Source: Actinomycetales bacterium
Lineage (GTDB): Bacteria; Actinomycetota; Actinomycetes; Nanopelagicales; Nanopelagicaceae
Direction: 5' to 3'
Assembly: GCA_018969355.1 (NCBI GenBank)
Contig: JAGWYO010000006.1
Coordinates: 15,961-39,960 of the forward strand
Length of the DNA stretch: 24,000 bases
Shown: one piece after another, positions 3,944-20,926 of the stretch
How positions within the stretch are numbered: the first letter of the stretch is position 1
How the letters are laid out: each line of letters starts with the position of its first letter
Position numbers and translations under genes: made by a program
Notes under the pieces: generated by a model
Told to the model about the DNA's origin: nothing
Database searches by the model: none
The model's input: only the letters and a program-made list of their open reading frames with translations

Positions 3944-3983
3944 GTAATTCCCCTCATAGGTTTAGATGTCAACTACAGCAACA

Positions 3984-4049
3984 AACCTATGGAGCCAGGG
4001 TTAACGCATAAGGAGTACTGGTTGAACGCGAGTAAACCTTTAGGTGAAC
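3984..4049 (-). promoter_or_regulatory. Candidate Pho-regulated pstS promoter: five 11-nt-phased repeat units plus a TAGGTT -10 box
   Basis: The minus strand reads GTTCACCTAAA GGTTTACTCGC GTTCAACCAGT ACTCCTTATGC GTTAACCCTGG CTCCA TAGGTT. Units start at 4049, 4038, 4027, 4016 and 4005. Units 1, 3 and 5 are strong, unit 2 is weak and unit 4 is degenerate. The last heptamer is 9 nt upstream of TAGGTT (3989->3984). This layout resembles PhoB/PhoP-type PHO boxes, which replace the -35 element. Confidence 0.55.
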
Positions 4050-4063
4050 AAATGGTGTCTCTA

Positions 4064-4942
4064 CTAGCCAAAGCGCCCGGTCACATAACTCTCAGTTCGA
4101 GAGTCTTGTGGGCGGGAGAAAATCTCAGAAGTTGGAGCAACTTCAATCATCTGGCCAGGTCCGCCATCAGAGAGAAAGAAGGCGGTGTAATCAGAGACGC
4201 GTGCAGCCTGCTGCATATTGTGAGTAACAATGATGATCGTCATTGTCTCTGACAGGTGGCGGATGGTCTCTTCAATACGAAGGGTTGAACCTGGATCCAA
4301 CGCTGAACATGGTTCATCCATGAGCAAGACTTGTGGGCGAACAGCTAGAGCACGTGCGATGCACAAGCGCTGCTGCTGACCGCCAGAGAGTGACCCTCCG
4401 TGAGCACCCAAGCGGTCCTTTACTTCATTCCATAAACCTGCCCGCTCTAGACACTCCTCCAATAAATCCTCTTTGTTCTCAACTTTAAGTTGAGCTAACT
4501 TGAGACCAGAGAGAACGTTTTCACCAATTGTCATTGATGGGAACGGGTTAGGCTTTTGGAACACCATTCCAATTTGCAGGCGGATCTTGGTTACATCTGT
4601 ACCTGGTGCGTAGACATCTTTGCCATCGAGCAGAACTTCACCGGCCATGGCAGCACCGGGAATGAACTCATGCATGCGGTTAATTGTGCGGATAAAGGTT
4701 GATTTACCGCATCCTGATGGACCGATAAGGGCGGTAACAGTGCCTGCTGCAAAATCTAAAGAGATATTTGAAAGCGCGTGATGCTTTCCAAACCAAGCGT
4801 GCACGCCGCGGGTCTCAAGGCCAGTTCCAAGTGCTGCAGTGCCGGGCACCTTAACAGCTTTGGCCTTAGCAACTTCTGCCAATGATGATGGCTTTACTGA
4901 TGTCTGCATTTCTTGGTTCTCGCTTTCATGTGAGGTGCTCAT
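4064..4942 (-). CDS. pstB: Phosphate ABC transporter ATP-binding protein PstB
   Basis: 292 aa with Walker A GPSGCGKST, signature LSGGQQQRLCIARA, Walker B LLMDEPCSALD and the PstB-typical C-terminus YVTGRFG. The ATGA overlap with the pstA stop (4939-4942) supports this start. That start gives an N-terminal extension of roughly 35 aa relative to E. coli PstB. Confidence 0.95.
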   Translation of the reverse strand: MSTSHESENQEMQTSVKPSSLAEVAKAKAVKVPGTAALGTGLETRGVHAWFGKHHALSNISLDFAAGTVTALIGPSGCGKSTFIRTINRMHEFIPGAAMAGEVLLDGKDVYAPGTDVTKIRLQIGMVFQKPNPFPSMTIGENVLSGLKLAQLKVENKEDLLEECLERAGLWNEVKDRLGAHGGSLSGGQQQRLCIARALAVRPQVLLMDEPCSALDPGSTLRIEETIRHLSETMTIIIVTHNMQQAARVSDYTAFFLSDGGPGQMIEVAPTSEIFSRPQDSRTESYVTGRFG

Positions 4943-5982
4943 TTAGAAACCTTTCGGGATCCGAGGAAGCGTGCTGATGTGAAGAGAATAAGAACAAGTC
5001 CAACAAGAACGAGTAGGCCGGCCCAAGCACGAGTAATCGCCTCGGGTGAACCTGCATTAAAAGATTTCCAGATGTAATACGGCAATGAACCCATCGGACC
5101 TGTGAAAGCGTTTGGATTAACTTTGTCGCCACCACCAGTAAGCAGAAGAATTGGCGCAGTTTCACCAGCAATGCGTGCAACACCTAAAATGACTGCAGTG
5201 ACTAAACCACTTCTAGCTGCAGGTAAAACAATCATGGCAACTGTGCGCAACTGAGTACCACCTAGTGCAGTTCCAGCTTCACGCAAATCATTTGGGATCA
5301 AGTTAAGAACTTCTTCAGATGTTCGGGCAATAGTAGGAATCATCAGGATAGTGAGCGAAAGCGCTCCCATAAATCCTGAGTAACCTTTAGTGATCGGATA
5401 AAGAATCGCTGAAAGAATAAATAAGCCTGCAACAATCGATGGAACACCACTCATCGCTTGAACAAGAAAGCGAATTGGCCCAGTAAATCTGCCTTTAATT
5501 TCAGTCAAATAAAGTGCAGTCAATATTCCAATGGGAACACTCATCACTAATGCCAATACCATCAATGTAAGAGTTCCAGTTATAGCGTGGAGCAATCCAC
5601 CATTTGAAAGCGGATCCGTTGGTGTTGCTAAAGCCATGTCTGTGGTAAACAGTCTAAAACTGATGCCAGGTAGGCCTTTTTGTAGCACCGTTGCCAAAAT
5701 ACTTGCAGCGGGAATAACTGTGACGATTGCGCCAATAGCAACTAGAGAATTAACTAGTGCGTCTTTTGCAGCTGCATTGCCACGTTGGATTCCCTTAAAT
5801 GCGGTTGTAAAGATCGCATAAGCGATAAAGAAGCAAACAAAATAAGCAAGCTTACCTTTAAGAGGTGTTAGGAAGACGAGTAAGTATGAGCTCAACAGCG
5901 AACCTATAAAAATAGCCCCGTCGATAGCTCGATCTTTTGGCGAAGCCGCCCATGGTCTTGTTGGCGTAGCAGTCATTGTCAT
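4939..5982 (-). CDS. pstA: Phosphate ABC transporter permease PstA
   Basis: 347-aa polytopic membrane protein. The EAA loop REAGTALGGTQLRTVAMIVLPAARSGLVTAVILGVARIAGETAPILL is PstA-type (ARxAGETAP). Confidence 0.9.
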   Translation of the reverse strand: MTMTATPTRPWAASPKDRAIDGAIFIGSLLSSYLLVFLTPLKGKLAYFVCFFIAYAIFTTAFKGIQRGNAAAKDALVNSLVAIGAIVTVIPAASILATVLQKGLPGISFRLFTTDMALATPTDPLSNGGLLHAITGTLTLMVLALVMSVPIGILTALYLTEIKGRFTGPIRFLVQAMSGVPSIVAGLFILSAILYPITKGYSGFMGALSLTILMIPTIARTSEEVLNLIPNDLREAGTALGGTQLRTVAMIVLPAARSGLVTAVILGVARIAGETAPILLLTGGGDKVNPNAFTGPMGSLPYYIWKSFNAGSPEAITRAWAGLLVLVGLVLILFTSARFLGSRKVSK

Positions 5983-5984
5983 CT

Positions 5985-6968
5985 TTAGCGCCCTGACTTC
6001 CCAGTGGTTTTCACAATCAAGTTAGCAATTGCATTCACAATTAATGTGAGTAGGAATAGAATCAAACCCGCAGCCATGAGAGCTTTTATTTCATATGGGC
6101 TTGCATCACCAAATTTGAGGATGATTAATGAGGCAACGTTTCCACCGGCACCAAGCAACATCTGCCAGTTGACTTGAAAAACAATATTGAGAACAGTGAA
6201 AACTGCAACTGTTTCACCCATCGCACGTCCCAAGCCAAGCATTGCTCCACCTATCACTCCACTTCGCCCATGTGGAATAACGACTGCTTTTATCATTGCC
6301 CACCGTGTTGCACCTAGTGCATACGCGGCTTGAATGCGATCAAGTGGTGCCTGTGAAAAAATTTCGCGTGAAACAGAGGTGATGATTGGGATGATCATGA
6401 TTGAAAGCACCACTCCTGCGACAAATGGCGAGCGTGTATAAACCGGCACTTGCATATCAAAAATTGGAATAAAGCCCAAATAGCGATGCAAAAGCTTGGC
6501 CCAATATTCAACACTAGGCATCAATACTAGGAAGCCCCAAATACCAAAAAGAATTGAAGGGAACGCTGCCATCAAGTCGATAATTGTTATGAGTATTTTC
6601 TTAAGCCAGCCAGGTGCGTAAAAGTTCAAAAATAGCGCTGAAAACACTGAGATTGGAACGGCTATGACCACAGCGATAAGAGAACACAAAATCGTTCCGA
6701 CCAGCATGGCTGCTAATCCAAAATGACTATCTAGGACGTTTCCAGCGTCATCTGTTGAGATTGACCACTCAGAATGAGTAATAAAACCAATTCCTTCTTG
6801 GCGCAAAACTTCAAAGCCGCGGTAACCAAGGAAAATCGCAATCAGTCCAAGAATGGCTAATGAAGACAATCCACCACCCGTAACAACGCCTCGGAAAACT
6901 TTATCTGAACGACGTGGTTCAGTAACGATTTCGCGTGGAGCTGGAATTACCAGTTCTGCTGTTGACAT
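5985..6968 (-). CDS. pstC: Phosphate ABC transporter permease PstC
   Basis: 327-aa polytopic membrane protein. The loop AAYALGATRWAMIKAVVIPHGRSGVIGGAMLGLGRAMGETVAV is PstC-type (GRAxGETxAV). The start is 2 nt after the phoU stop, and no SD is visible. Confidence 0.9.
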   Translation of the reverse strand: MSTAELVIPAPREIVTEPRRSDKVFRGVVTGGGLSSLAILGLIAIFLGYRGFEVLRQEGIGFITHSEWSISTDDAGNVLDSHFGLAAMLVGTILCSLIAVVIAVPISVFSALFLNFYAPGWLKKILITIIDLMAAFPSILFGIWGFLVLMPSVEYWAKLLHRYLGFIPIFDMQVPVYTRSPFVAGVVLSIMIIPIITSVSREIFSQAPLDRIQAAYALGATRWAMIKAVVIPHGRSGVIGGAMLGLGRAMGETVAVFTVLNIVFQVNWQMLLGAGGNVASLIILKFGDASPYEIKALMAAGLILFLLTLIVNAIANLIVKTTGKSGR

Positions 6969-6970
6969 TA

Positions 6971-7624
6971 TTAGGAGGCATACCTTCCAGTGACAAGGAA
7001 ATAAACACGTCGCGAAATAGAGACTGCATGATCTGCATATCGCTCGTAATAGCGCCCTAAAAGGGTCAAATCAATTGCTGTTTCAATTCCGTGCTTCCAT
7101 GTCGGCTCAATTAATATGGCGATTAGTTTGCGGTGTAGGTCATCCATCACGTCATCATCTCGCTCGACTTCAAGGGCCATTTCAGTATCGCGAGTGGAGA
7201 TTACAACACCAGTTTTTTCAGTGATTGCTACAGCTGCAACTCCCATTGCTTGGGTAATTGAAACTAGCTCCGGTGGCACCGCTGCATTTGGGTGACGCAA
7301 ACGAGCAATCTTTGCAACGTGGTGAGCTAGGTCGCCCATTCGCTCTAAATCTGAACCCATGCGCAGTGCAGTTATGAGAGCTCGTAGATCTGATGCAACC
7401 GGTTGTTGCCTTGCAATAATGTCGATAACGCGTGAATCAATTTCATGCTGATAGTCATCAATCTTGACGTCTGTTGCGATTACTTCTTCAGCAAGTTTCA
7501 AGTCGCATGAAAGAATTGCACTCGTTGCTTTTGTCATAGAACTGGCAACCATCGCAGTAAGGTCAACCAGAGACTGCGATACGTTATCTAGTTCATCTTG
7601 GAAAACAGATCTAATGAGGGCCAT
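6971..7624 (-). CDS. phoU: Phosphate signalling/transport accessory protein PhoU
   Basis: The track ORF extends to 7663, but I place the start at ATG 7624 (MALIRSVFQDELD...). This matches the usual actinobacterial PhoU N-terminus as I recall it (M..AYHEELD). The extra 13 codons would overlap the PHO-box-like repeats. A TAGGTT box sits 7 nt upstream of ATG 7624. Two PhoU repeats are visible (QQPVASDLR...DLERMGD and ...YYERYADHA). Confidence 0.9.
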   Translation of the reverse strand: MALIRSVFQDELDNVSQSLVDLTAMVASSMTKATSAILSCDLKLAEEVIATDVKIDDYQHEIDSRVIDIIARQQPVASDLRALITALRMGSDLERMGDLAHHVAKIARLRHPNAAVPPELVSITQAMGVAAVAITEKTGVVISTRDTEMALEVERDDDVMDDLHRKLIAILIEPTWKHGIETAIDLTLLGRYYERYADHAVSISRRVYFLVTGRYAS

Positions 7625-7631
7625 GGCGCTA

Positions 7632-7686
7632 AACCTATGTGGAGGTGATGAATAGAGGCCCATGGTTAGGTGAACGGAAGGTTAAC
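7632..7686 (-). promoter_or_regulatory. Candidate Pho-regulated phoU promoter in the phoU/senX3 divergent region
   Basis: The minus strand reads GTTAACCTTCC GTTCACCTAAC CATGGGCCTCT ATTCATCACCT CCACA TAGGTT TAGCGCC ATG. Units start at 7686, 7675, 7664 and 7653 in 11-nt phase. The last heptamer is 9 nt from TAGGTT (7637->7632), which is 7 nt from ATG 7624. The geometry matches the pstS promoter. Confidence 0.55.
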
Positions 7687-7706: not shown

Positions 7707-8780
7707 GTGAGGCCTGTGAAGTTCTTGCGCCGAGAATTAGAGGCCCCAGAACCTAGAGCCTTGCCTGAAATGCTTCTTGAGACCCTCACTCTCCTCGATG
7801 AAGATTCAATGATTTTAGCCCCGGGAGAGATTCCATTATTTATCACCCCTGGTGTTGAAACTCTGGGGATTCTAAAAGATGGCCGTGTTCAAAGCTCTGA
7901 ATTACTTGCAACAGTTCGAGTGGTCCGGCGAACACATAATCAACAGGTGGGGATGATTGAAATTCCTAGAGGACCAATTGGAGAAGGCAAGCACGAGCTA
8001 ACTGTAAAGGTACTTCCACTAACAAAAGATGATTTAGTTTTAGTTCTTATTAGTGATGAGAGTGAAGCACAACGTGTTCATGATGTTCGCCGAGATTTCG
8101 TAGCAAATATTTCACATGAATTAAAAACTCCAATCGGTGCCCTCTCTCTTTTAAGCGAAGCAGTTCTTGGTTCAAAAGATGATCCAGAATCCGTAGTTAA
8201 ATTTGCCACCCGAATGCAATCTGAGGCAAAGCGATTAACAGATTTAGTCCAGGAAATTATTGATTTATCGCGTGTTCAAGATTCTGATCCATTACAACTT
8301 GCTCAGGAGGTCAGCGTTGACTATGTGGTTAGAGAGGCAGTCGATCAATGTCAAATCACAGCAGATAGTCGCACTATCACCGTGAGTTATCTTGAAAACA
8401 GCGATGCTGTTGTATTAGGCGATCGCGATCAATTGATTATGGCAGTTCATAATTTGGTTGAAAATGCCATCAACTATTCACCTGAAAATACAAAGGTTTC
8501 AATTACTACTACCAGTGAATCTGGCATCATAGATATCTCTGTTACAGACCAGGGAATTGGAATATCTGAATCTGAACAAGATCGTATATTTGAACGTTTC
8601 TATCGTGTGGATCCGGCACGTTCACGCCAAACAGGTGGAACTGGGTTAGGTCTATCAATTGTTAAGCACGTGGCAGCAAAGCATGGCGGTGAAGTAAAGG
8701 TATGGAGTGTCGAAAATGTGGGCAGTACTTTTTCAATCCGACTACCCATCTATGAATCACCTATGGAGAATGCTCAATGA
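7707..8780 (+). CDS. senX3: SenX3/PhoR-type sensor histidine kinase with no predicted transmembrane segment
   Basis: H-box RRDFVANISHELKTPIGAL, N-box HNLVENAINYSP, G-boxes DQGIGI and GGTGLGLSIV, and a PAS-like N-terminal region. The track start is GTG 7707. An alternative leaderless start is GTG 7716, which lies 7 nt after a TAGAGT box (7703-7708). The stop overlaps the regX3 start (ATGA, 8777-8780). Confidence 0.85.
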   Translation: MRPVKFLRRELEAPEPRALPEMLLETLTLLDEDSMILAPGEIPLFITPGVETLGILKDGRVQSSELLATVRVVRRTHNQQVGMIEIPRGPIGEGKHELTVKVLPLTKDDLVLVLISDESEAQRVHDVRRDFVANISHELKTPIGALSLLSEAVLGSKDDPESVVKFATRMQSEAKRLTDLVQEIIDLSRVQDSDPLQLAQEVSVDYVVREAVDQCQITADSRTITVSYLENSDAVVLGDRDQLIMAVHNLVENAINYSPENTKVSITTTSESGIIDISVTDQGIGISESEQDRIFERFYRVDPARSRQTGGTGLGLSIVKHVAAKHGGEVKVWSVENVGSTFSIRLPIYESPMENAQ

Positions 8781-9463
8781 CAAAGATACTTATAGTTGAA
8801 GATGAATCATCATTTTCTGAAGCTTTAGCTTTCTTGCTTGGAAAAGAGGGATTTGAAGTAAGTGTTGCAGAAGATGGCCGTGCCGCACTCAATCACTTTG
8901 CAAAAGAAGGCGCGGACTTGATTCTTCTTGACCTCATGATTCCAGAAGTATCGGGTGTAGATGTATGTCGCACCATTCGCACAACTTCACAAGTTCCAAT
9001 CATCATGCTCACTGCAAAAGATACAGAAATAGACAAGGTGGTTGGCCTTGAACTTGGCGCAGATGACTATGTCACTAAGCCGTATTCATCACGTGAGTTA
9101 ATAGCACGCATCAAGGCCGTCTTGCGTCGTGGGATACCAGACAGTGAACTGCACGGTGATCTTGATGTTGTCTCAGTCGGCCCAATTAAGTTGGACACAG
9201 CAAGACACCAAGCATCTATCAATGGTGCTCCGGTTGGATTACCGCTTAAGGAATTTGAATTATTGGAGTTTTTAATGCGAAATGCTGGCCGTGTTTTAAC
9301 TCGCTCTCAACTTATCGACCGAGTGTGGGGTGGAGATTATTTTGGGGACACAAAGACCCTCGATGTTCATATCAAGCGTTTGCGTTCAAAGATCGAAATA
9401 GATCCTGCTAACCCTGTGTTGATTCAAACCATAAGAGGTCTTGGTTACAAGTTAGAGAACTAA
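8777..9463 (+). CDS. regX3: OmpR/PhoB-family response regulator (RegX3/PhoP-like)
   Basis: 228 aa. The receiver domain begins MTKILIVEDESSFSEALAFLLGKEGFEV, very like mycobacterial RegX3, with the phospho-acceptor in LILLDLMIP. The C-terminal winged helix contains TLDVHIKRLRSKIE...IQTIRGLGYKL. Confidence 0.9.
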   Translation: MTKILIVEDESSFSEALAFLLGKEGFEVSVAEDGRAALNHFAKEGADLILLDLMIPEVSGVDVCRTIRTTSQVPIIMLTAKDTEIDKVVGLELGADDYVTKPYSSRELIARIKAVLRRGIPDSELHGDLDVVSVGPIKLDTARHQASINGAPVGLPLKEFELLEFLMRNAGRVLTRSQLIDRVWGGDYFGDTKTLDVHIKRLRSKIEIDPANPVLIQTIRGLGYKLEN

Positions 9464-9478
9464 TCCTCAAGTGCCAGC

Positions 9479-9502
9479 ACTCTCATATTCTTTTATGAGG
9501 GT
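9479..9502 (+). terminator. Weak candidate terminator or attenuator after regX3
   Basis: ACTCTCAT (9479-9486) pairs with ATGAGGGT (9495-9502): 8 bp including one G-U, with an 8-nt loop. An A/U-rich tail ATTTATAGATCTTATTA follows. The stem is short and AT-rich. Confidence 0.3.
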
Positions 9503-9544
9503 ATTTATAGATCTTATTACTGCCTCTAAACCTATTATGTAATC

Positions 9545-11080
9545 ATGACTTCTCTAGAAAACATTCGAAGCGTGGTGAATGAGCCCAAATTCACCTATCG
9601 GCAACGTATTGCACAATTAGCCAACTTGGCAGAAAACTTGCTTGATCCACCACCAGTACGTAAACAGTGCACCGAGGCTCATGAGAAGCGGATTATCTGC
9701 GACATGTTTGAGGGCAACGCTCCTTATCGCCCACGTTATTTGCTACCTGACTACAAAAAAGTTCTAGAAAACGGTTCGCGATTCCTAGAGCTACCCGTTG
9801 CTAAGGATTTTGATGACGCTCTGGCATTCCTATTAATAATGTATTCGGCAACACCATCTATTACCGGCTACCCCGTTTACTTTGGAGATCTAGATTCTAT
9901 CCTTCTTCCCTACGTTGATGGTGTGAGTGATGAAGATCTATATGCCAAATTAAAACGTTTTTGGATTTCACTCGATCGAATGTTTCCGGATGCCTTTGCA
10001 CATACAAATCTAAGTCCAATCTATAACCGAGTTTCAAAGATGATTTTGAAATTAGAGCGTGAATTACTGCAGGTGGTTCCTAACATTTCCTTAAAAGTTG
10101 ACCCAAAACTCACTAGCAATGAATATCTCCTCGATGCAGTGCAGACTGTCTTTGCTTGTGGTAAGCCACATTTCATCAATGATGAGATGATGCAAAGAGA
10201 TCTAGGTTCTGAGTATGCAGCTGTTAGTTGCTATAACTCGCTTAAGATTAGAGGCGGTTCTCATACTTTGGTGCGCATAAACTTGAAGAAAACTGCCCAA
10301 GAGTGTGATGGCGGAGTAAATAAATTCTTTGAAACAACACTTCCTTATTACCTTGGTCTGACTGCCGAACTCATGGAGTCAAGAATTCTTTATTTGGTTG
10401 AGGAATCTGGATTCTATGAGAGCAACTGGTTAGTAAATGAAGGCCTGCTTGATTTAGATAGGTTTTCTGCAATGTTCGGTCTATTTGGTTTGGCTGAGTG
10501 CGTCAATATCTTGATGGAACAAGAAGGTGTTTCGGGCACCTATGGTCACAGTATTGCCGCCGATGATTTGGGGTATCGCATCACTAGTTTTATCGCAGAT
10601 TGGGTTAGCCGAAGCAAAATGCCTTACTGCAATGGAAATGATGGCTACGCTTTCTTGCATTCTCAATCTGGAATTGACCTTGATCTTGACGTAACAGCTG
10701 GAACTCGAATTCCTATTGGCACAGAACCTCCACTCCTAGAACATCTACGCACAGTTTCTCGCCACCACCATCTCTTTGCCTCCGGCATTAGTGATGTTTT
10801 ATCTTTTGACGAAACTGCCGTAAAGAATCCACAGGCAGTTGTTGATGTGATTCGTGGGGCTTTTAAGAGTGGAATGCGTGATTTCACATTCAATTTGGAT
10901 AGCAACGACTTCATACGAATTACGGGCTATTTAGTTCGTAAATCTGATTTAGCAAAAATGCCATCTGCTCGTCATGCAAGCACATACCTGGGTGCAGGTT
11001 CCGTAGCAGATTCTCATGTTGATCGGCGCAATGTAAAGCGAGTAATGAGTGCTGAAAGCTCACCTAGCTCTGGTAGCTAG
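9545..11080 (+). CDS. yjjI: Short glycyl-radical enzyme, YjjI family (DUF3029-like); function unknown
   Basis: 511 aa. The C-terminal FIRITGYLV (R458-G461-Y462, nt 10916-10930) is a near match to the glycyl-radical signature R-[IVT]-[CSA]-G-Y. A candidate thiyl Cys lies in VFAC204GKPHF. The N-terminus (NEPKFTYRQR...ICDMFEGNAPYRPRYLLPDY) matches my recollection of E. coli YjjI. It is followed by an overlapping activase gene. A TATTAT box (9533-9538) is 6 nt before the ATG, with no SD. Confidence 0.7.
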   Translation: MTSLENIRSVVNEPKFTYRQRIAQLANLAENLLDPPPVRKQCTEAHEKRIICDMFEGNAPYRPRYLLPDYKKVLENGSRFLELPVAKDFDDALAFLLIMYSATPSITGYPVYFGDLDSILLPYVDGVSDEDLYAKLKRFWISLDRMFPDAFAHTNLSPIYNRVSKMILKLERELLQVVPNISLKVDPKLTSNEYLLDAVQTVFACGKPHFINDEMMQRDLGSEYAAVSCYNSLKIRGGSHTLVRINLKKTAQECDGGVNKFFETTLPYYLGLTAELMESRILYLVEESGFYESNWLVNEGLLDLDRFSAMFGLFGLAECVNILMEQEGVSGTYGHSIAADDLGYRITSFIADWVSRSKMPYCNGNDGYAFLHSQSGIDLDLDVTAGTRIPIGTEPPLLEHLRTVSRHHHLFASGISDVLSFDETAVKNPQAVVDVIRGAFKSGMRDFTFNLDSNDFIRITGYLVRKSDLAKMPSARHASTYLGAGSVADSHVDRRNVKRVMSAESSPSSGS

Positions 11081-11747
11081 CACGATTAAGTTTTCTTGGG
11101 TCGATGGCCCAGGAAATCGTTACGTACTATTCTTGCAGGGCTGCAACTTCAACTGTTTAGCCTGCCACAACCCGCAAACTATTCCTTTGAAAACTCCGCG
11201 TGCCAACGAGATGACTGTGCAAGAAGTTCTTGAGGAGATTCGTTGCTCAATGCCCTATATCTCAGGGATTACTGTTTCAGGTGGTGAAGCCACGGTGCAG
11301 CATGAATTTGTGCATGATCTCTTTAAGGAAATTAAATCGCGCAAAGAGTTTGAGGCTCTTACTACCTTCATTGATAGTAACGGAAATGCACCCCAAGAAG
11401 TGTGGGATCAATTAGCCCCATACACCGATGGCGTTATGCTTGATTTAAAAGCCCTCGATGATGCCAAGCACATCGAGCTCACCGGAAGTTCAAATGCAAT
11501 TGTCCTAGATTCAATTAAGTATTTAGATTTGATTGGAAAACTCTATGAAGTGAGATTGCTCTTAGTCCCAGGCCAGAATGACTCTGATAAAGAGTTAATT
11601 GATACGGCCGTGTTGTTGAGAGGGATTAATCCAGAGATGCGCATCAGGATAAACGCGTTTAAAACCCACGGCGTTCGAGCACAAGCTCGACAATGGCCAG
11701 AAGTAAATGATGCCGATCTGGCTCGCTACAGAAATATTGTCAATTAA
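11049..11747 (+). CDS. yjjW: Glycyl-radical enzyme activating protein (radical SAM, PflA/YjjW type)
   Basis: 232 aa containing VDGPGNRYVLFLQGCNFNCLACHNP (CX3CX2C cluster motif after VDGPG) and the GGE SAM motif (VSGGEATV). GTG 11049 overlaps the yjjI 3' end by 32 nt. No in-frame ATG, GTG or TTG lies between the yjjI stop and the VDGPG motif. Confidence 0.8.
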   Translation: MLKAHLALVASTIKFSWVDGPGNRYVLFLQGCNFNCLACHNPQTIPLKTPRANEMTVQEVLEEIRCSMPYISGITVSGGEATVQHEFVHDLFKEIKSRKEFEALTTFIDSNGNAPQEVWDQLAPYTDGVMLDLKALDDAKHIELTGSSNAIVLDSIKYLDLIGKLYEVRLLLVPGQNDSDKELIDTAVLLRGINPEMRIRINAFKTHGVRAQARQWPEVNDADLARYRNIVN

Positions 11748-13084
11748 AGCCGAGCAAAAGCATCATCAAGAACGCTTAAAGCATCTTTAAGGAGCTCATC
11801 TGTAATAACAAGCGGTGGCAGGAAGCGCACAACGTTTGAATATGTACCAGCAGTAAGAACCAACACGCCTTGACTCTGGCAGTACTTAACAACTGCGTTC
11901 ATAGCTGCTGTGTTTGGATTCTTAGTTCCTGGCTCTACTAATTCAATTGCCTGCATAGCACCGCGCCCACGCACTTCACCAATTACTGGATACTTCTTAG
12001 CAAGTGCGCGAAGCGATGATCCTAGAATCTCACCAATGTGCTTGGCACGGGCCACAAGGTTTTCTTCTTCCAAAACCTGTATTGCGCCAAGGGCTGCAGC
12101 ACATGCGATTGGGTTACCACCGTATGTTCCACCTAAACCTGATGCATGCACTGAATCCATTACTTCAGCGCGGCCAGTAACTGCTGCAAGTGGAAGTCCA
12201 CCAGCAATACCCTTAGCGGTAACAACCATGTCAGGAACAACGCCTTCTTCTTCAACGGCAAACATATGTCCTGTGCGAGCAAAGCCAGTCTGAACTTCAT
12301 CTGCAATAAAGACGATTCCATTGTCCTTTGAATATTTTGCCAGCGCTGGAAGGAATCCCTTAGGTGGAACGACAAACCCACCTTCTCCTTGAATTGGCTC
12401 AATCAAAATCGCAGCAACGTTATGTGCTCCGATTTCTTTATCAATTTTATGTGTGACCATGTCGATGGCATCTTCGGTAATCGTTTCTTGATTGCCCACC
12501 CAATGGAATGAATAAGGCATTGGTACGCGATAAATTTCAGGGGCAAATGGACCAAATCCCTCTTTGTATGGCATATTTTTTGCAGTCAGCGCCATAGTGA
12601 GATTTGTGCGTCCGTGATAACTGTGTTCAAAAACAACAATTGCTGGACGCTTGGTGTAGTGGCGGGCAATCTTTACGGCGTTTTCAACTGCTTCAGCACC
12701 TGAGTTAACAAGAAGTGACTTCTTTTTATGTGAACCAGGAGTCATTGCATTGAGCTTTTCGCACACTTCGATGTAGTTCATATAGGGAGCAACTGTGAAG
12801 CAGGTATGTGTAAAGGCCTGTACTTGTTCGATAACGCGATCGACAACGCGTTGGGCAGCATTGCCTACGTTTGTAACACCAATTCCTGAACCTAAATCAA
12901 TAATCTGATTGCCATCGATATCGAGCAAGATTGCATCACTTGCACGTTCAATTACAACTGGAATCGCCATGCCCAATCCGCCAGAAGTCGCTTCCGTGCG
13001 GCGCTTGAGCGCCTCGGTAGATTGTGGTCCCGGAATAGCCGTCACCAAACGACGTTCTTGAGTCAGATGAGTAAGTGTCTCCAT
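11744..13084 (-). CDS. gabT: Class III PLP aminotransferase, 4-aminobutyrate (omega-amino acid) aminotransferase type
   Basis: 446 aa. GabT-like throughout: AIPGPQS..., DGNQIIDLGSGIGVTNVGN, YHGRT, DEVQTGFARTG and the PLP-Lys region VTAKGIAGGLPL. A TAGACT box (13096->13091) is 6 nt before ATG 13084, with no SD. Confidence 0.85.
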   Translation of the reverse strand: METLTHLTQERRLVTAIPGPQSTEALKRRTEATSGGLGMAIPVVIERASDAILLDIDGNQIIDLGSGIGVTNVGNAAQRVVDRVIEQVQAFTHTCFTVAPYMNYIEVCEKLNAMTPGSHKKKSLLVNSGAEAVENAVKIARHYTKRPAIVVFEHSYHGRTNLTMALTAKNMPYKEGFGPFAPEIYRVPMPYSFHWVGNQETITEDAIDMVTHKIDKEIGAHNVAAILIEPIQGEGGFVVPPKGFLPALAKYSKDNGIVFIADEVQTGFARTGHMFAVEEEGVVPDMVVTAKGIAGGLPLAAVTGRAEVMDSVHASGLGGTYGGNPIACAAALGAIQVLEEENLVARAKHIGEILGSSLRALAKKYPVIGEVRGRGAMQAIELVEPGTKNPNTAAMNAVVKYCQSQGVLVLTAGTYSNVVRFLPPLVITDELLKDALSVLDDAFARL

Positions 13085-13141
13085 GGGAAAAGTCTAAGGC
13101 CTCATTTCTCATCGGGACGCCCAGAAGTTACCCTTAGTGCT

Positions 13142-14575
13142 ATGAGTTCACTGAGAGATTCGGCACCACTTCTGGATGCCTATCTCTCTTACTTTGAAAC
13201 TAGGCGCACCCCTTTCACCATCCCAGGTCACAAGCAGCGTGCATCACGCCTAGATGCAGCTTTAGGTGCTGTGGTCGATGCCGACACACCTTTATATGGT
13301 GGCTTAGATGAAATTAAATTAACTAACCAGACACTCAAGAAGGCAGAGGCTCTGGCAGCTAGATTATGGAAGGTTGACTTTGCTCGCTTTTCAACTGGTG
13401 GATCTACTCATGCCAATCAAGCAATGATTTTGGCTCTAGGAAAACCTGGAGACAAAGTTGCCCTCTCGCGCACAGCACACCGTTCAATTCTTAGCGCTCT
13501 TGTTTTAGCAGGCCTAGAACCCATCTGGTTATCACCGCAGATAGATGCAACAACTGGTGTGCCAACAGGAATCTCGGTTGCAGAGTTTGAAAAAGTAATT
13601 CATCAAAAACCAATTGCGCTGCTGCTCACTGAACCTGGTTATCTAGGCACTTTATCTGATTTAGGCGCACTCGTTAAGAGTGCACATTCACATTCAATTC
13701 CAGTCATTGTGGATGCTGCATGGGGTGGCCACTTTGGTTTCTCACCATTGACACCCCAGCATTGCTTGCAGTTGGGTGCTGATGCACTCATTACAAGTGT
13801 TCACAAAGCACTTCCTGGATATAGCGCCTCGGCTTTACTCCTTGCCCAAGGCAAGTTGCTTAACCTGGATCGCATTGAGCAAAGCTTTGAAACTACTCAT
13901 ACCACCTCCCCTGCCGGTGCACCGCTTGCATCTATTGATGGATGTCGGGCATTGCTGCAAACTCGAGGAGAAGAGTTAGTTTCTCAACTCGTAAAAAATG
14001 TTGAGAGCTTTAAAACAAAGGTTCAGACACATTTCGATGTGCCCATCTTTTTAAACACTCGTGATTTTGCCCCAGGCCGCTTTGATCCAGCCAAGATTGT
14101 TCTGCGAGCTAACCAATTAGGTGCATCCGGAGTTGAGATCGAGAAGAAGTTACAAACTCAAGGAATCCGGGTTGAGATGGCAGATAACGACACGGTCGTA
14201 ATCTTGGCGACTCTGGCAGATTTCACTGAGGAGTTTGATCACTTGGCCAAGGTTCTAGTTCCAATCCTTAACACACTGCAAGCAACAGCGCGCCCAACGG
14301 CAACATCGTTGAGCTGGTCGGTGGTGCCAACCGTTGCCATCTCAATGCGCGATGCTTACTTTGCCGATACCGAAATGGTTGCAGCCAAAGATTGTGTTGG
14401 GTGCATCTCAGCTGACTTAATCGCCCCTTATCCCCCAGGTGTTGCAGTGGTCGCACCTGGTGAAGTGTTAACTTCACAGATTCTTGATGGTCTGGCAACA
14501 ACTAAGGCAGCTGGTGTGCGCATCGCCTATGCCACAGATCCTTCTCTTACAACCTATCGAACCGTCAAGAATTAA
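13142..14575 (+). CDS. PLP-dependent Orn/Lys/Arg decarboxylase family protein (SpeA/YaaO-like)
   Basis: The track ORF starts at 13022 but would then overlap gabT on the opposite strand. I place the start at ATG 13142 (MSSLRDSAPLL...). FTIPGHKQ, STGGSTHANQ and the PLP-Lys ITSVHKALPG align with B. subtilis SpeA-type decarboxylases. A TACCCT box (13129-13134) is 7 nt before the ATG. Confidence 0.8.
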   Translation: MSSLRDSAPLLDAYLSYFETRRTPFTIPGHKQRASRLDAALGAVVDADTPLYGGLDEIKLTNQTLKKAEALAARLWKVDFARFSTGGSTHANQAMILALGKPGDKVALSRTAHRSILSALVLAGLEPIWLSPQIDATTGVPTGISVAEFEKVIHQKPIALLLTEPGYLGTLSDLGALVKSAHSHSIPVIVDAAWGGHFGFSPLTPQHCLQLGADALITSVHKALPGYSASALLLAQGKLLNLDRIEQSFETTHTTSPAGAPLASIDGCRALLQTRGEELVSQLVKNVESFKTKVQTHFDVPIFLNTRDFAPGRFDPAKIVLRANQLGASGVEIEKKLQTQGIRVEMADNDTVVILATLADFTEEFDHLAKVLVPILNTLQATARPTATSLSWSVVPTVAISMRDAYFADTEMVAAKDCVGCISADLIAPYPPGVAVVAPGEVLTSQILDGLATTKAAGVRIAYATDPSLTTYRTVKN

Positions 14576-14581
14576 GCCTGT

Positions 14582-14598
14582 GTTGCACTATGTGCAAC
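14582..14598. promoter_or_regulatory. Perfect 7-3-7 palindrome GTTGCAC-TAT-GTGCAAC, a candidate operator
   Basis: Read directly from the sequence. It lies 7 nt after the decarboxylase stop and 47 nt before the aldehyde dehydrogenase ATG. No U-tract follows. A near copy occurs at 18437-18452 across the iclR start codon. Confidence 0.5.
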
Positions 14599-14615
14599 GG
14601 GTATGGCCATGATTT

Positions 14616-14637
14616 GTTCACCTTGAGCCGATAACAT
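14616..14637 (+). promoter_or_regulatory. Candidate promoter of the aldehyde dehydrogenase-malate synthase pair: GTTCACC-N9-TAACAT
   Basis: GTTCACC (14616-14622), then 9 nt, then TAACAT (14632-14637), then 7 nt, then ATG 14645. The heptamer-to-box spacing is identical to the pstS and phoU promoters. No SD is present, so the transcript looks leaderless. Confidence 0.45.
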
Positions 14638-14644
14638 CAGCGAC

Positions 14645-16129
14645 ATGTCTGATACACAAACTTGGCAAAAGCGCGCACTTGATCTCAAGCCACGATCGCA
14701 GATTTTCATCAATGGACAATTCGTTGATGCAGCCAGTGGTAAAACCTTTGAAAACTTCTCACCCAGTGATGGACATCTAATTTGTAATGTTGCATCTGGT
14801 GATGGTGAAGATATTAACCGCGCAGTTGCATCAGCTAAAAAGGCATATGACTCCGGTGTGTGGAGTGAGATGAATCCACGCGATAAAAAGGCAATTATGT
14901 TGCGCTGGGCACAACTGCTCAATGAACACCGAGAAGAATTGGCTTTACTTGAAGCTATCGACACAGGCCGTCCTATTGCAGATGCACTCAGTGTGGATGC
15001 TCCTAACTCTGCTCGAGTAATCCAGTGGTATGGCGAAACTATTGATAAGACTTATGACGAAATTGCACCGGCTCCACGCAACGCACTTGCCATGGTGACA
15101 CGCGAACCCCTAGGCGTGATTGGCGCAGTTGTTCCTTGGAACTATCCCATGATGATTACAAGTTGGAAACTAGGTCCGGCATTGGCTATGGGAAACAGCA
15201 TTGTTGTTAAACCTGCAGAAAACTCATCACTGAGTGCGCTCAAGATGGCTGAACTAGCCATTGCTGCAGGATTGCCTGCAGGTGTCTTTAATGTGGTGCC
15301 AGGTCTTGGCTCAGAGGCAGGACAAGCACTTGCCCGTCACATGGATGTTGCAAAGATTGCATTTACAGGTAGCGGACCTACTGGTCGAAAGATGATGCAA
15401 TATGCCGCTGAGTCAAATATGAAACAGGTTTCACTTGAACTTGGTGGAAAGAGCCCACAAGTTGTCCTCAATGACTGCACCGACTTAGAAGCTGCTGCAT
15501 CAACTATTGCTTGGGCCATCTACTACAACGCAGGTCAGACTTGTAATGCTGGATCTCGAATCATCGTTGAGAAAGGCGTGAAAGAAGAGCTCTTTGCACA
15601 CCTTCATACATTCTTAGAAAGCTTTGTCGTTGGAAATCAATTTGATCCAGCAACGCAGATGGCTGGACTTGTCTCTGAACTACAACGCGACCGCGTTAAC
15701 GCCTACCTTGATCTCATTGGCCAAGATGGTGAAAAGCTAATCTTTGGTGGTCAAAAGACCTCCGGAAAAGATCTGCTTATCAAGCCAACATTAATTGATA
15801 ACGTCAAGCCTGGCTCACGTCTTGCCCAAGAGGAGATCTTTGGACCAGTCTTAGTTGCTATTGATGCAAAAGATGAAGCTGAAGCTTTGCAGTTAGCAAA
15901 CGGAACTGAATACGGACTTGCAGCATCGGTATGGACTAATAATGTTGCCCGCGCACATAAGTTTGCCCGCAAACTTCGTGCTGGAACTGTTTGGGTTAAC
16001 ACATTCGACATGCTCGATGTGATTACTCCATTCGGAGGCTTTGGTGCTTCAGGTAATGGAAGAGACAAGTCATTGCATGCCTTAGATGCATACAGCGCAT
16101 TGAAAACAACGTGGGTTGATCTGAATTAA
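14645..16129 (+). CDS. NAD(P)-dependent aldehyde dehydrogenase, PuuC/aminoaldehyde dehydrogenase-like
   Basis: 494 aa. The N-terminus WQKRALDLKPRSQIFINGQFVDAASGKTFENFSP parallels E. coli PuuC. The catalytic Glu is in ELGGKSP and the catalytic Cys in GQTCNAGSR. Confidence 0.9.
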   Translation: MSDTQTWQKRALDLKPRSQIFINGQFVDAASGKTFENFSPSDGHLICNVASGDGEDINRAVASAKKAYDSGVWSEMNPRDKKAIMLRWAQLLNEHREELALLEAIDTGRPIADALSVDAPNSARVIQWYGETIDKTYDEIAPAPRNALAMVTREPLGVIGAVVPWNYPMMITSWKLGPALAMGNSIVVKPAENSSLSALKMAELAIAAGLPAGVFNVVPGLGSEAGQALARHMDVAKIAFTGSGPTGRKMMQYAAESNMKQVSLELGGKSPQVVLNDCTDLEAAASTIAWAIYYNAGQTCNAGSRIIVEKGVKEELFAHLHTFLESFVVGNQFDPATQMAGLVSELQRDRVNAYLDLIGQDGEKLIFGGQKTSGKDLLIKPTLIDNVKPGSRLAQEEIFGPVLVAIDAKDEAEALQLANGTEYGLAASVWTNNVARAHKFARKLRAGTVWVNTFDMLDVITPFGGFGASGNGRDKSLHALDAYSALKTTWVDLN

Positions 16130-17701
16130 ATGCCTGGCGTTGAAATAACTGGCAATGTAGTTCCACGCTCAGAAGAGATTCTGACGCAGCAGGCACTCGA
16201 CCTCATTGCACTGCTGCACCGCACACTCAATCCGCGTCGCTTAGAACTCTTAGCTGCACGCAAAGTGCGCATGCAGCACATTGCAGATGGCAAAGACTTT
16301 GATTTCCTGCCACAAACTAAAGCGATTCGTGATGATAAAAGCTGGAATGTTGCACCGGCTGCGCCGGGTTTAAATGATCGGCGCGTAGAGATCACTGGTC
16401 CCACTGAGCGAAAAATGACGATTAACGCCCTGAACTCTGGGGCAAAGGTCTGGTTAGCAGATTTAGAGGATTCCAATACCCCACTGTGGGAAAATGTTAT
16501 TAATGGTCAACTCAATTTGTTGGATGCAATTACTCGAACAATTGATTTCACAAATGAAGTTGGCAAAAGATATGAACTACGCCCAGATAGTGAATTGGCA
16601 ACTATTGTTGTTCGTCCTCGAGGCTTTCACTTGCCGGAAAAACACATCCTTGTTGATGGCCAGATAACTTCAGGTTCATTTGTTGATTTTGCTTTATACA
16701 TGATCACTTGTGCCAAATTACAGATTGCTCGTGGGCATGGCCCTTACTTCTATCTTGCCAAGATGGAGTCCCACCTTGAAGCTCGTATGTGGAATGAAGC
16801 TTTCAATCTTGCCCAGGATTTCTTAAACATTGCGCGCGGCACCATAAGAGCAACAGCACTTATTGAAACTTTGCCTGCAGCTTTTGAAATGGAAGAAATT
16901 CTCTTTGAACTCAAAGATCATGCGGCTGGACTTAATGCTGGACGCTGGGACTATCTCTTTAGTGTCATTAAAAACTATCGCTTGCGCGGTGCTGATTTTG
17001 TCTTGCCAGATAGAAATAGCGTTGCAATGACTGCGCCCTTTATGCGTGCATATACCGAACTACTTGTGAAAACCTGCCACACCAGAGGCGCACATGCAAT
17101 TGGCGGAATGGCAGCATTCATCCCAAGTTCTGACCCAGCAGTTAACGCAACTGCATTTGAGAAGGTGGCCGCAGATAAAACGCGCGAGGCAAATGAGGGC
17201 TTTGATGGCTCATGGGTTGCCCATCCAGGAATGGTAGAACTGTGTAGAGAGCAGTTCACCAAGGTTTTAGGTGATCGTCCTCATCAAAAGGAAAAGACAA
17301 AGTCAGAAGTTTCAGTCTCGGCAGCTCAATTACTTGATATCAAAGCCACACCTGGCACCGTAACTGAGGCAGGACTTCGCAATAACATCAGTGTTGCAAT
17401 CCAATATCTTGAGCGTTGGTTGGCTGGTTCTGGCGCAGTGGCAATCTTTAACTTGATGGAAGATGCAGCTACAGCTGAGATTTCACGCTCACAGATCTGG
17501 CAATGGATTCATAACGAAGTCAGGCTTGAGAGCGGTGAGCTAGTCAGCGCTAGCTATGTTAAGCAGTTGGCCGATGAAGAGGTTGCAAAACTGCCCCACT
17601 CAACTGACTACACACAAGCTCAAAAGATGTTTATCGAGACTTCAGTTAATGATGATTACTTAGAGTTTCTGACTCTGCCTGCATATGAGGCGATGGCCTA
17701 A
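16130..17701 (+). CDS. aceB: Malate synthase A
   Basis: 523 aa, collinear with E. coli AceB: RRVEITGPTERKMTINALNSGAKVWLADLEDS, GPYFYLAKMES, LIETLPAAFEMEEIL, GRWDY, GGMAAFIPS and LMEDAATAEISRSQIWQWI. The ATG is the base immediately after the aldehyde dehydrogenase TAA (16127-16132, TAAATG). Confidence 0.95.
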   Translation: MPGVEITGNVVPRSEEILTQQALDLIALLHRTLNPRRLELLAARKVRMQHIADGKDFDFLPQTKAIRDDKSWNVAPAAPGLNDRRVEITGPTERKMTINALNSGAKVWLADLEDSNTPLWENVINGQLNLLDAITRTIDFTNEVGKRYELRPDSELATIVVRPRGFHLPEKHILVDGQITSGSFVDFALYMITCAKLQIARGHGPYFYLAKMESHLEARMWNEAFNLAQDFLNIARGTIRATALIETLPAAFEMEEILFELKDHAAGLNAGRWDYLFSVIKNYRLRGADFVLPDRNSVAMTAPFMRAYTELLVKTCHTRGAHAIGGMAAFIPSSDPAVNATAFEKVAADKTREANEGFDGSWVAHPGMVELCREQFTKVLGDRPHQKEKTKSEVSVSAAQLLDIKATPGTVTEAGLRNNISVAIQYLERWLAGSGAVAIFNLMEDAATAEISRSQIWQWIHNEVRLESGELVSASYVKQLADEEVAKLPHSTDYTQAQKMFIETSVNDDYLEFLTLPAYEAMA

Positions 17702-17702
17702 C

Positions 17703-18446
17703 TTAGGCAATAAGCGCAGTGATTTCTTGAGCTGCTGCAATTAACTCAGGAGTCAGCGAAATCAATTGCTCTCGCGTAGTTGTTTGTGTTGGCAAAGTGA
17801 TGTTGAGATAAGCAATAAATCTTCCATCACGTGCGCGAATAGATGCAGAGATCCCACACCATTGCTCAGTGTGCTCTTTATAGTTATATGCAACTCCAGA
17901 AATACGTGCTTGCAAAACTTCAGTACGAAGTTCTTCGGGATCTGTGATTGTGAAATCAGTAAGTGCTGCTAATGGTGTGGCCAAGTAATTCTCTAAATGT
18001 GCATCTGGAAGAGATGCCAAATACAGTTTGCCCACAGATCCGCAATTAAGTGGAACATGCATTCCAGCTAAATCAACTTCTTCTGGCAGATCCATTCGTA
18101 TTTGATCAAGAACTATTAGTTCACCACGAGCAGCAATTTCAAGAAATGCACTTGCCCCAAATAGAGCTGAAATCCGCTCTAGTACTGGCCGTGCTTTTCG
18201 GCTCATCAGATTTGTTTGCGTTGAAGCAGCTAACTTAAATGCACCGCTTCCAACTGTGAATCGACCGGATTCATCATCTTTTTCAACTAATTCAAATTCA
18301 AGCAAAGTATTTATCAAGCGCCACGCAGTTGCGCGATTGATGTCCATAGTTTTTGCCAGCTCTGGAATTGTTTGTGGCTGAGGAGATTGAGCCAAAAGAT
18401 CAAGCATGGCCAGCGCACGCTCAACAGATTGAATCCGTTGCACCAT
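17703..18446 (-). CDS. IclR-family transcriptional regulator
   Basis: 247 aa. N-terminal wHTH (VERALAMLDLLAQSPQPQTIPELAKTMDINRATAWRLINTL) plus an IclR effector domain. SD AAGGAG lies 8 nt before the ATG. It is convergent with aceB, with 1 nt between the stop codons. Confidence 0.9.
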   Translation of the reverse strand: MVQRIQSVERALAMLDLLAQSPQPQTIPELAKTMDINRATAWRLINTLLEFELVEKDDESGRFTVGSGAFKLAASTQTNLMSRKARPVLERISALFGASAFLEIAARGELIVLDQIRMDLPEEVDLAGMHVPLNCGSVGKLYLASLPDAHLENYLATPLAALTDFTITDPEELRTEVLQARISGVAYNYKEHTEQWCGISASIRARDGRFIAYLNITLPTQTTTREQLISLTPELIAAAQEITALIA

Positions 18447-18474
18447 GTGAACCGCTCCTTACATTTTCGTGAAC
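18437..18474. promoter_or_regulatory. Operator-like repeats across the iclR start: GTTGCAC-CAT-GTGAAC, and a second GTGAAC 22 bp away
   Basis: GTTGCAC (18437-18443), then CAT (complement of the iclR ATG), then GTGAAC (18447-18452), is a near copy of the 14582-14598 palindrome. GTGAAC recurs at 18469-18474, exactly two 11-nt steps later. On the minus strand this reads GTTCACGAAAA TGTAAGGAGCG GTTCAC-ATG and brackets the SD. Confidence 0.45.
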
Positions 18475-18572
18475 TATGAGATTTAGGTTAGCGCAATCTG
18501 TGGCGTTGGCATATATGCGGGGACTAGTCTTTGGCCCATCAGCCATATGCGATATTTCTAAGGGGTTTGAGC

Positions 18573-20913: not shown

Positions 20914-20926
20914 GAAGTCAATTCAC

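Follow-up and report, generated by a model that had tools for sequence, protein, structure and literature searches.

The window analysed here, a stretch of 24,000 nucleotides (nt) on contig JAGWYO010000006.1, carries two overlapping genes on its forward strand, yjjI and yjjW. The first encodes a glycyl-radical enzyme (GRE) of the YjjI family, and the second encodes a radical-SAM (S-adenosylmethionine) protein of the kind that activates such enzymes. The G+C content of the window is ~45%. Its nearest relatives among public genomes are Candidatus (Ca.) Planktophila, a Ca. Nanopelagicaceae bacterium and lake bins labelled 'uncultured actinobacterium', all of the freshwater acI group. The host is an aerobic freshwater acI actinobacterium of Ca. 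Planktophila/Nanopelagicaceae with a streamlined genome. These relatives bear out an earlier note on this DNA, which had taken the host for an aerobic heterotrophic actinobacterium. The two genes almost certainly form a functional YjjI/YjjW glycyl-radical pair. Read as a whole, the locus may be a self-contained two-gene GRE module with its own promoter and a nucleoside-type substrate, a joint reading to which we give just short of an even chance. The genes and sites concerned are the following.

9545..11080, + strand: yjjI, 511-residue YjjI-family GRE (PF11230, TIGR04040, identity to E. coli YjjI, AlphaFold2 model, selection)
10157..10159, + strand: codon of C205 (the 'C204' of the earlier note), not the catalytic cysteine
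10229..10231, + strand: codon of C229 (AAVSC229YNS), predicted thiyl-radical cysteine (invariance, hhalign)
10925..10927, + strand: codon of G461 (R458-I-T-G461-Y), predicted glycyl-radical site (invariant, aligned with PflB G734)
11049..11080, + strand: yjjI/yjjW overlap of 32 nt, likely translational coupling (comparable overlaps elsewhere)
11049..11747, + strand: yjjW, 232-residue radical-SAM activase, short form without the ferredoxin-like insert (TIGR04041, PF04055, PF13353)
11142..11165, + strand: radical-SAM [4Fe-4S] motif C32-x3-C36-x2-C39 (CNFNCLACHN) of YjjW (motif in the sequence)

The YjjI/YjjW pair and its predicted chemistry

Both proteins match the models of their families. The 511-residue protein, whose reading frame had been given correctly in the earlier note, matches the Pfam YjjI-like family PF11230 at E = 6e-192 (638.7 bits against a cut-off of 23) and the NCBIfam YjjI model TIGR04040 at E = 5e-202 (671.9 against 498.3 bits). 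The TIGR04040 alignment runs end to end, with residues 6-498 on profile positions 2-497 of 497, and the identity to E. coli YjjI is 43% over the full length. Judged by the Pfam and NCBIfam E-values, the YjjI features are far beyond chance. YjjW is 39% identical to E. coli YjjW. It matches TIGR04041 marginally (252.2 against 250.2 bits) and in two stretches, because an insert is missing, and Radical_SAM (PF04055) and Fer4_12 (PF13353) match it as well. The profile hidden Markov model comparison thus placed both proteins above the family cut-offs and, together with the E. coli identities, upholds the assignment to YjjI/YjjW that had been proposed.

That identification is already supplied by automatic annotation, and public records label close relatives 'YjjI family glycine radical enzyme'. 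The window pair is a further member of a known, still uncharacterised family, and it adds no new one. YjjI is a compact family, with 480 proteins at E ≤0.001 among 1.84 billion representatives scanned and only about two dozen full-length YjjI clusters among the matches listed. yjjW stands directly behind yjjI in essentially all loci with enough flank. The 32-nt overlap, also exact in the earlier note, has counterparts of 29 nt in E. coli and 29 nt in locus L005, and translation of the two genes would be coupled through it. The pair is common in lake metagenomes, and several samples together contain at least 22 metagenome contigs that encode the identical 511-residue protein in identical surroundings.

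Conservation within YjjI was judged on 20 family representatives of ≤50% identity. R458 and G461 are invariant among them and belong to the family's glycyl-radical motif R-[IV]-[TS]-G-[YF], which reads DFIRITGYLV in the window. hhalign pairs G461 with PflB G734. In E. coli YjjI the motif is VTG465YMVR, and Gly465 was labelled by a radical-trapping probe in live cells (bioRxiv 10.64898/2026.08.13.742689). G461 is therefore, as a prediction from alignment, the radical glycine, at the position given in the earlier note. That note had let the protein end with FIRITGYLV; the motif does lie near the C-terminus, but 50 residues follow G461. The Thr that it remarked on in place of the usual C/S/A is present too, as the norm across the YjjI family and not as a peculiarity. 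The PROSITE-type glycyl-radical pattern [STIV]-x-R-[IVT]-[CSA]-G-Y-x-[GACV] gave no YjjI match, so that the pattern scan suggested earlier came out negative. F456 and T460 deviate from it, a deviation common to the whole family.

The 50 residues that follow the Gly loop are predicted to be disordered, with a predicted local distance difference test score (pLDDT) <50 over residues 473-490 and 496-511. Within residues 479-511 (10979-11077 of the window), R495, R499, V500, S502 and E504 are conserved in actinobacterial and enterobacterial sequences. The final 10 YjjI codons overlap yjjW.

C229 is the sole cysteine invariant across the 20 representatives and sits in the family's (V/A)-S-C-(Y/F)-N loop. 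hhalign pairs S228-C229 with PflB C418-C419, and C229 with C384 of E. coli NrdD. We predict C229 to be the catalytic thiyl cysteine. D117, D144, E299 and R388 are invariant too, and R64, H153, K207, R244, H372 and Q374 nearly so; these residues would line the pocket. The earlier note had put the thiyl radical on 'C204' in VFACGKPHF. That residue is C205, and it is no candidate, because most other family clusters have S, T, N, G, A or L at this position; its conservation is limited to the actinobacterial and enterobacterial clades.

In YjjW, all the motifs that had marked it as a PflA-type radical-SAM activase were verified: VDGPG at residue 18, the cysteine motif CNFNCLACHN and GGE at residue 78. 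C32, C36, C39 and G78-G79-E80 are invariant in an alignment of 10 activases. The start codon is GTG, which is supported because the N-terminus aligns with those of nine homologous activases. Metagenome gene callers begin yjjW 162 nt later, at ATG 11211 (178 residues; L001-L004). That start loses the CX3CX2C motif, and the acI yjjW annotation is therefore truncated. Aligned with E. coli YjjW, the window protein has a gap of 44 columns at the Cys-rich insert of the former, and the ferredoxin-like insert with its two further Cys clusters is missing from the window YjjW. L005, L012, Actinobacillus, L095 and L090 lack it too, whereas two clostridial YjjW have it, as E. coli YjjW does. The insert is variable within the family, and the short form is common to other actinobacteria, Pasteurellaceae and several Firmicute-type loci.

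An AlphaFold2 model of YjjI was built on 32 sequences (pLDDT 82.5; predicted template-modelling score, pTM, 0.86). Foldseek returned 139 PDB matches at E ≤0.001, and all 50 listed are class III ribonucleotide reductases (RNRs) or PFL-like GREs. The top 23 among those listed are class III RNRs from Prevotella copri, Streptococcus thermophilus and phage T4, with E about 1e-17 to 1e-14 and a query TM-score (TMq) ≤0.76. After them come PflD, YbiW, HypD, benzylsuccinate synthase, propanediol/glycerol dehydratases and PFL. The family profile had no match among all PDB sequences even at E ≤10. In the structural comparison that the earlier note had proposed, the model matches PFL/NrdD-type barrel folds. 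YjjI is thus predicted to have the ten-stranded α/β barrel of solved GREs, and by this model it is a compact member of the glycyl-radical barrel superfamily, structurally closest to NrdD. By alignment with PflB and NrdD, the Cys loop (C229) and the Gly loop (G461) would meet in the centre of the barrel.

The two sequences hold all the motifs for a radical-SAM activase and a glycyl/thiyl-radical enzyme. From these conserved motifs and the chemistry of the family, we infer a path that leads from YjjW through G461 and C229 to the substrate. YjjW would bind a [4Fe-4S] cluster via C32, C36 and C39 and cleave S-adenosylmethionine, giving a 5'-deoxyadenosyl radical. This radical would take a hydrogen from G461 in YjjI, which would then carry a stable glycyl radical. 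At each turnover, the radical would pass from G461 to C229, and the thiyl radical would take a hydrogen atom from the substrate.

Transcription of the pair and its flanking genes

The window proteins were mapped on 80 genome loci found with the family alignment, and the spacer between regX3 and yjjI was aligned over 22 acI loci. The features upstream of yjjI are these.

7669..7686, + strand: two PHO-box-like heptamers, GGTGAAC and GGTTAAC, 11 nt apart, in the 43-nt divergent phoU/senX3 spacer
7707..9463, + strand: senX3-regX3-type two-component system, context (HisKA/HATPase_c and Response_reg/Trans_reg_C domains)
9470..9505, + strand: weak hairpin, conserved in part, right behind the regX3 stop, then a T-rich stretch (-9.4 to -11.1 kcal/mol, z = -1.9)
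9533..9538, + strand: TATTAT, -10-like hexamer 6 nt before the yjjI ATG, predicted leaderless promoter

The regX3 stop lies 81 nt from yjjI, the gap that had been given earlier, and the weak hairpin reported in this gap was likewise found. The best NCBIfam similarities of the two-component system are to PhoR/PnpS and PhoB-type models, below their cut-offs. Two elements of the spacer are conserved, and the rest drifts. One is TAnnAT, which lies at a fixed 6 nt from the ATG and is at least 90% conserved over the 22 loci. The other is GCCAGCACTC (9473-9482), directly after the regX3 stop, which is conserved across the alignment and pairs with a downstream GAGTGCT in many of the 22 loci. Across loci the hairpin folds at -9 to -15 kcal/mol (z from +0.15 to -2.0); it is a weak structure and is not predicted everywhere. 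The sequence GCCAGCACTC is conserved even in loci without a good predicted hairpin. Judged by this pattern, it might be a protein-binding site, instead of or besides a terminator arm.

No Shine-Dalgarno sequence is visible before yjjI. Leaderless mRNA is common in Actinobacteria, and TAnnAT stands where the -10 element of such a transcript would be expected, which suggests that yjjIW is transcribed separately and without a leader. On this alignment, yjjIW is probably its own transcription unit, with a promoter of its own and a leaderless mRNA whose first nucleotide would be A9545. A generic sigma-70/terminator scan gave no more sites than in shuffled sequence and none in the spacer. An Rfam scan of the whole window found no RNA family, so the 81-nt spacer holds no known riboswitch or leader.

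The position behind senX3-regX3 had led to the suggestion of a role in the Pho system. Under that explanation, the pair would be part of the phosphate-starvation response, either sharing a transcript with senX3-regX3 or under the control of SenX3-RegX3, and its substrate would be an organophosphorus compound or something else used in phosphate scavenging. The pair does lie 81 nt behind regX3, on the same strand and beside pst-phoU, and the intervening hairpin is weak. This arrangement is retained in 21 of the 80 loci, and if the substrate is nucleoside-derived, nucleic-acid scavenging under phosphate starvation would offer a loose rationale. In all 21, however, which belong to one close clade, YjjI is ≥82% identical to that of the window. 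The adjacency is missing in sister acI loci at 74-82% identity (L027-L039, L067), in every more distant actinobacterium examined (Dactylosporangium, Nocardioides, large soil bins) and in the enterics, Firmicutes and Pasteurellaceae examined. The synteny survey that had been proposed thus shows a linkage of one clade, not one conserved across actinobacteria. PHO-box-like repeats precede pstS (3999-4049) and also occur in the phoU/senX3 spacer, but no GGTKRAC heptamer occurs between 7687 and 12195, hence none upstream of yjjI. Streptomyces PHO boxes are GTTCACC. Our motif, with 15 occurrences in the window against 7.5 expected, was derived from this window and by analogy with these boxes. The conserved -10-like element, at leaderless distance from the ATG, also speaks against the phosphate explanation. 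We therefore regard a phosphate role as improbable. By these sequence comparisons the pair appears to stand outside the phosphate regulon, and its adjacency to senX3-regX3 looks like a local accident.

The phosphate transporter genes themselves (2792-7663, - strand) comprise phoU, two permeases, an ATPase and, after a 120-nt gap, a PstS-like binding protein in last place. This order differs from the usual pstSCAB-phoU, and the PHO-box-like repeats at 3999-4049 lie in the 120-nt gap. Beside these genes is an open reading frame (ORF) of the DinB_2 superfamily (154 residues, 2093-2557, - strand), whose position is kept in several acI loci.

Downstream, the module is bounded by a convergent gene.

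11744..13084, - strand: gabT-type aminotransferase, convergent with yjjW, module boundary (NF004714, 708 bits, cut-off 639)

This gene opens a polyamine/γ-aminobutyrate (GABA)-type island at 11744-23702. The island contains gabT, a pyridoxal-phosphate-dependent Orn/Lys/Arg-decarboxylase-like gene, an aldehyde dehydrogenase, malate synthase, an IclR regulator, a Zn-dependent alcohol dehydrogenase and a Pot-like ATP-binding cassette (ABC) transporter (binding protein, two permeases and an ATPase with a TOBE domain). The decarboxylase-like gene has two candidate starts (13022-13141): the ORF start at TTG 13022 would overlap gabT by 63 nt, and gene callers start the gene ~120 nt further in (477 residues). 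In the Planktophila loci L019, L023, L036 and L056, and also in L010 and L014, yjjW and gabT are separated by a 266-residue short-chain dehydrogenase gene on the opposite strand.

The island raises the thought that the pair works with amine/GABA catabolism, for example as a radical C-N lyase on an amine. gabT abuts yjjW in 17 loci, and the window has the polyamine/GABA-type gene set downstream. Nevertheless, gabT is convergent and on the opposite strand, and its adjacency is limited to the close Planktophila clade. Even there it is broken by the short-chain dehydrogenase or other genes in L012, L016, L019, L021 and L023, and no such neighbours are found elsewhere. We consider a partnership with this island very improbable.

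Selection and the oxygen question

The ratio of nonsynonymous to synonymous substitution rates (dN/dS) was calculated for the pair and its regulatory neighbours. Against relatives 70-87% identical, synonymous sites were saturated, and the comparison was redone with relatives at ~87-92%, two of which still gave saturated values. Against L006 (92% identical) dN/dS is 0.052 for yjjI, 0.090 for yjjW, 0.020 for regX3 and 0.033 for senX3. The ranges are 0.03-0.05 for yjjI, 0.07-0.09 for yjjW and 0.02-0.03 for regX3. Both yjjI and yjjW are under strong purifying selection. Judged by this selection, the pair appears functional, and L012, a complete chromosome of 1.41 Mb, has retained it.

Oxygen destroys glycyl radicals, and the host lineage lives in oxygenated water. 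Both facts would suit a decaying relic of an anaerobic ancestor, without function in an aerobic lineage. The data say otherwise. Neither reading frame is disrupted, no catalytic motif is missing, and dN/dS of 0.03-0.09 is comparable to that of the neighbouring regulator genes. The pair is retained in genomes of ~1.4 Mb such as L012 and is widespread in lake metagenomes. The selection analysis effectively refutes a relic, and we give that explanation next to no credence.

A functional pair leaves a paradox. Cultivated species of the host order are reported absent from anoxic samples, and hypolimnetic abundance is reported to correlate positively with dissolved oxygen (PMC12817590). In an aerobic host, YjjI might be used only at low oxygen or might need protection from oxygen. 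Aerobic soil actinomycetes, too, have related YjjI genes. A strongly selected pair in some of the smallest free-living actinobacterial genomes, from oxygenated lakes, is unexpected for oxygen-labile chemistry. Strong selection on an oxygen-labile system in an oxic-water host is the most interesting aspect of the locus.

In some other bacteria, there are signs that yjjI is used at low oxygen. E. coli yjjI is among the operons directly activated by FNR (PMC3688515), and yjjI is induced anaerobically in Yersinia intermedia. Divergent Crp/Fnr-family regulators lie upstream of the pair in 6 clusters of the Firmicute/Pasteurellaceae branch. This neighbour fits oxygen- or redox-dependent control of yjjI in those organisms. 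One such regulator, with cNMP_binding and HTH_Crp_2 domains, lies just upstream of yjjI in L159 (2520-3146).

Nucleoside neighbourhoods and the proposed substrate

The absence of an established substrate or reaction, stated in the earlier note, still holds for YjjI/YjjW. A preprint of August 2026 treats YjjI as a still uncharacterised putative GRE (bioRxiv 10.64898/2026.08.13.742689), and a June 2026 review of the GRE superfamily does not mention it. In open-access papers and bioRxiv, we found no functional characterisation of YjjI/YjjW and no literature link between YjjI and nucleosides. Gene neighbourhoods were sampled in ~170 loci.

Nucleoside genes recur beside the pair in several arrangements. 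In E. coli, yjjIW is divergent from deoCABD, and in Edwardsiella it lies between deoCABD and nupC. Actinobacillus and many Pasteurellaceae-type metagenome loci carry yjjI, yjjW, nupC and deoD in this order on a single strand. A 5.4-Mb genome and several metagenome loci have the pair inside a PnrA/Bmp-type nucleoside ABC operon (bmp-yjjI-yjjW-ATPase-permease-permease). Clostridial and erysipelotrichaceal YjjI fall in the same branch as these loci. Among the actinobacteria, five loci have a bmp-ABC transporter directly behind yjjIW, some with cdd (cytidine deaminase) and pdp (pyrimidine-nucleoside phosphorylase) as well, and in Trueperaceae a bmp gene stands just upstream of the pair. When neighbours were clustered without preselection in the Firmicute/Pasteurellaceae branch, nupC and the Bmp-type ABC ATPase, each in 6/30 clusters, were the top specific neighbours after yjjW; the Crp/Fnr-family regulator ties with them at 6/30. 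In the actinobacterial branch, no universal partner other than yjjW emerged. Besides the Planktophila pst/senX3/gabT block and the five Bmp loci, the neighbours there are unrelated housekeeping genes (phosphoglucomutase, DEAD-box helicase, TldD, cysteine synthase, MMPL, topoisomerase). The nucleoside association is far from universal, yet it recurs with different genes and architectures in separate lineages.

Because the predicted fold is RNR-like and nucleoside neighbours recur, a nucleoside-type substrate is our best guess. We tentatively propose either a nucleoside itself or a nucleoside-derived pentose or pentose phosphate, and put this somewhat below an even chance. YjjI could attack the ribose in an RNR-like or diol-dehydratase-like manner, without the second reducing cysteine of RNR. 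Lacking a reducing cysteine, it would favour dehydration or elimination; a net reduction would call for an external reductant, for example formate. Candidate reactions would be a radical 2',3'-diol dehydration with base release, or a reduction at the nucleoside level.

Several points weigh against the joint reading of an independently transcribed, nucleoside-directed module. A nucleoside gene lies within about 6 kb of the pair in only 16 of the 75 distinct YjjI clusters (90% identity) with usable flanks; by branch the counts are 8/24, 6/48 and 2/3, the actinobacterial branch accounting for the 6/48. None lies beside the pair in the window or in any acI locus, and the clostridial, erysipelotrichaceal and Proteus loci have no nucleoside neighbours either. 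The enterobacterial deo adjacency is divergent and thus not one of co-transcription. The fold likeness leaves the chemistry of YjjI unfixed, because the second cysteine and the zinc site of NrdD are missing. As to an own promoter, the spacer hairpin is weak and not predicted in all loci, and read-through from regX3 into yjjI may occur. Finally, the absence of the host lineage from anoxic samples leaves the occasion for glycyl-radical use unexplained.

The strongest competitor keeps the enzyme and changes the substrate. YjjI would be a functional GRE acting on some small metabolite of low-oxygen conditions that is not a nucleoside, and the nucleoside neighbours would be coincidental or reflect shared anaerobic regulation. 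Consistent with this, 59 of the 75 clusters have no nearby nucleoside gene, and yjjI and yjjW move together as an independent cassette whose neighbours are unrelated. In E. coli, moreover, yjjI co-clusters with nitrate-respiration genes, and this co-expression points to the nitrate/nitrite regulon (PMC3228777). On the other hand, nupC, bmp-ABC, deoD, deoCABD, cdd and pdp recur in varied arrangements in several separate lineages, and the pair has been inserted inside a bmp-ABC operon, a pattern hard to put down to chance. We give a non-nucleoside substrate a substantial chance, slightly below that of a nucleoside-type one.

A nucleoside-type substrate, were it correct, would open a new radical route in nucleoside metabolism. 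That YjjI is an unrecognised nucleoside-directed GRE for anaerobic nucleoside salvage or catabolism, with what this implies about oxygen for acI, is a larger claim, and we consider it rather unlikely as it stands. If true, it would change the view of the oxygen niche of the most abundant freshwater bacteria: either the acI 'obligate aerobes' regularly use low-oxygen moments or microniches, or the glycyl-radical system is more oxygen-tolerant than expected. YjjI is one of the few E. coli GREs without a known reaction. Its catalytic cysteine can now be fixed, by prediction, as C229 and its fold as NrdD-like, and the nucleoside neighbourhoods turn the substrate question into a short, testable list. 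The value of the locus lies in this nucleoside lead from the comparative survey and in the ecological paradox of its host.

Comparison with known systems places these features. The nearest solved fold to the YjjI model is that of NrdD (Foldseek E about 3e-17, TMq ≤0.76). The two share a glycyl-radical C-terminal region, an aligned thiyl cysteine and a small PflA/NrdG-type activase. Nevertheless, sequence identity is only 13-15%. PF13597 (NRDD) scores 26.1 against a cut-off of 26.2, over YjjI residues 179-356 only, and the NCBIfam NrdD models do not match YjjI. C175, the second catalytic cysteine of E. coli NrdD, falls in a gap of YjjI in the hhalign alignment; C52 of YjjI aligns to an NrdD histidine and is not family-invariant. 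The last cysteine of YjjI is C362, with none in the C-terminal 149 residues and hence no Cys4 zinc site. YjjI has no ATP-cone either, and its 511 residues compare with 712 in E. coli NrdD. An identity as NrdD was ruled out, the second cysteine and the zinc site being absent and the profile score below its cut-off.

With the PFL-like eliminases and dehydratases (PflB, PflD/YbiW, HypD, glycerol/propanediol dehydratases) YjjI shares the superfamily fold, and with the dehydratases and eliminases it shares a single catalytic cysteine. It differs from PflB in having S228 in place of C418, and thus no PFL-type cysteine pair. It scores 23.5 against the Pfam PFL-like cut-off of 24.3 and departs from the PROSITE-type pattern at two positions. 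The earlier note had made it 250-350 residues shorter than characterised GREs. It is indeed shorter, by ~250 residues in the case of E. coli PflB (760 residues), and it is shorter than E. coli NrdD as well.

The closest known system is the E. coli pair itself, YjjI (b4380) and YjjW (b4379). There are differences: the window activase lacks the Cys-rich ferredoxin-like insert of ~44 residues, the window pair has neither a deoCABD neighbour nor known FNR control, and the window host is an aerobic freshwater actinobacterium with a streamlined genome, where E. coli is a facultative anaerobe. The two pairs nevertheless agree in the R-I/V-T-G-Y motif, the VSCYN loop, the gene order and an overlap of 32 nt in the window and 29 nt in E. 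coli.

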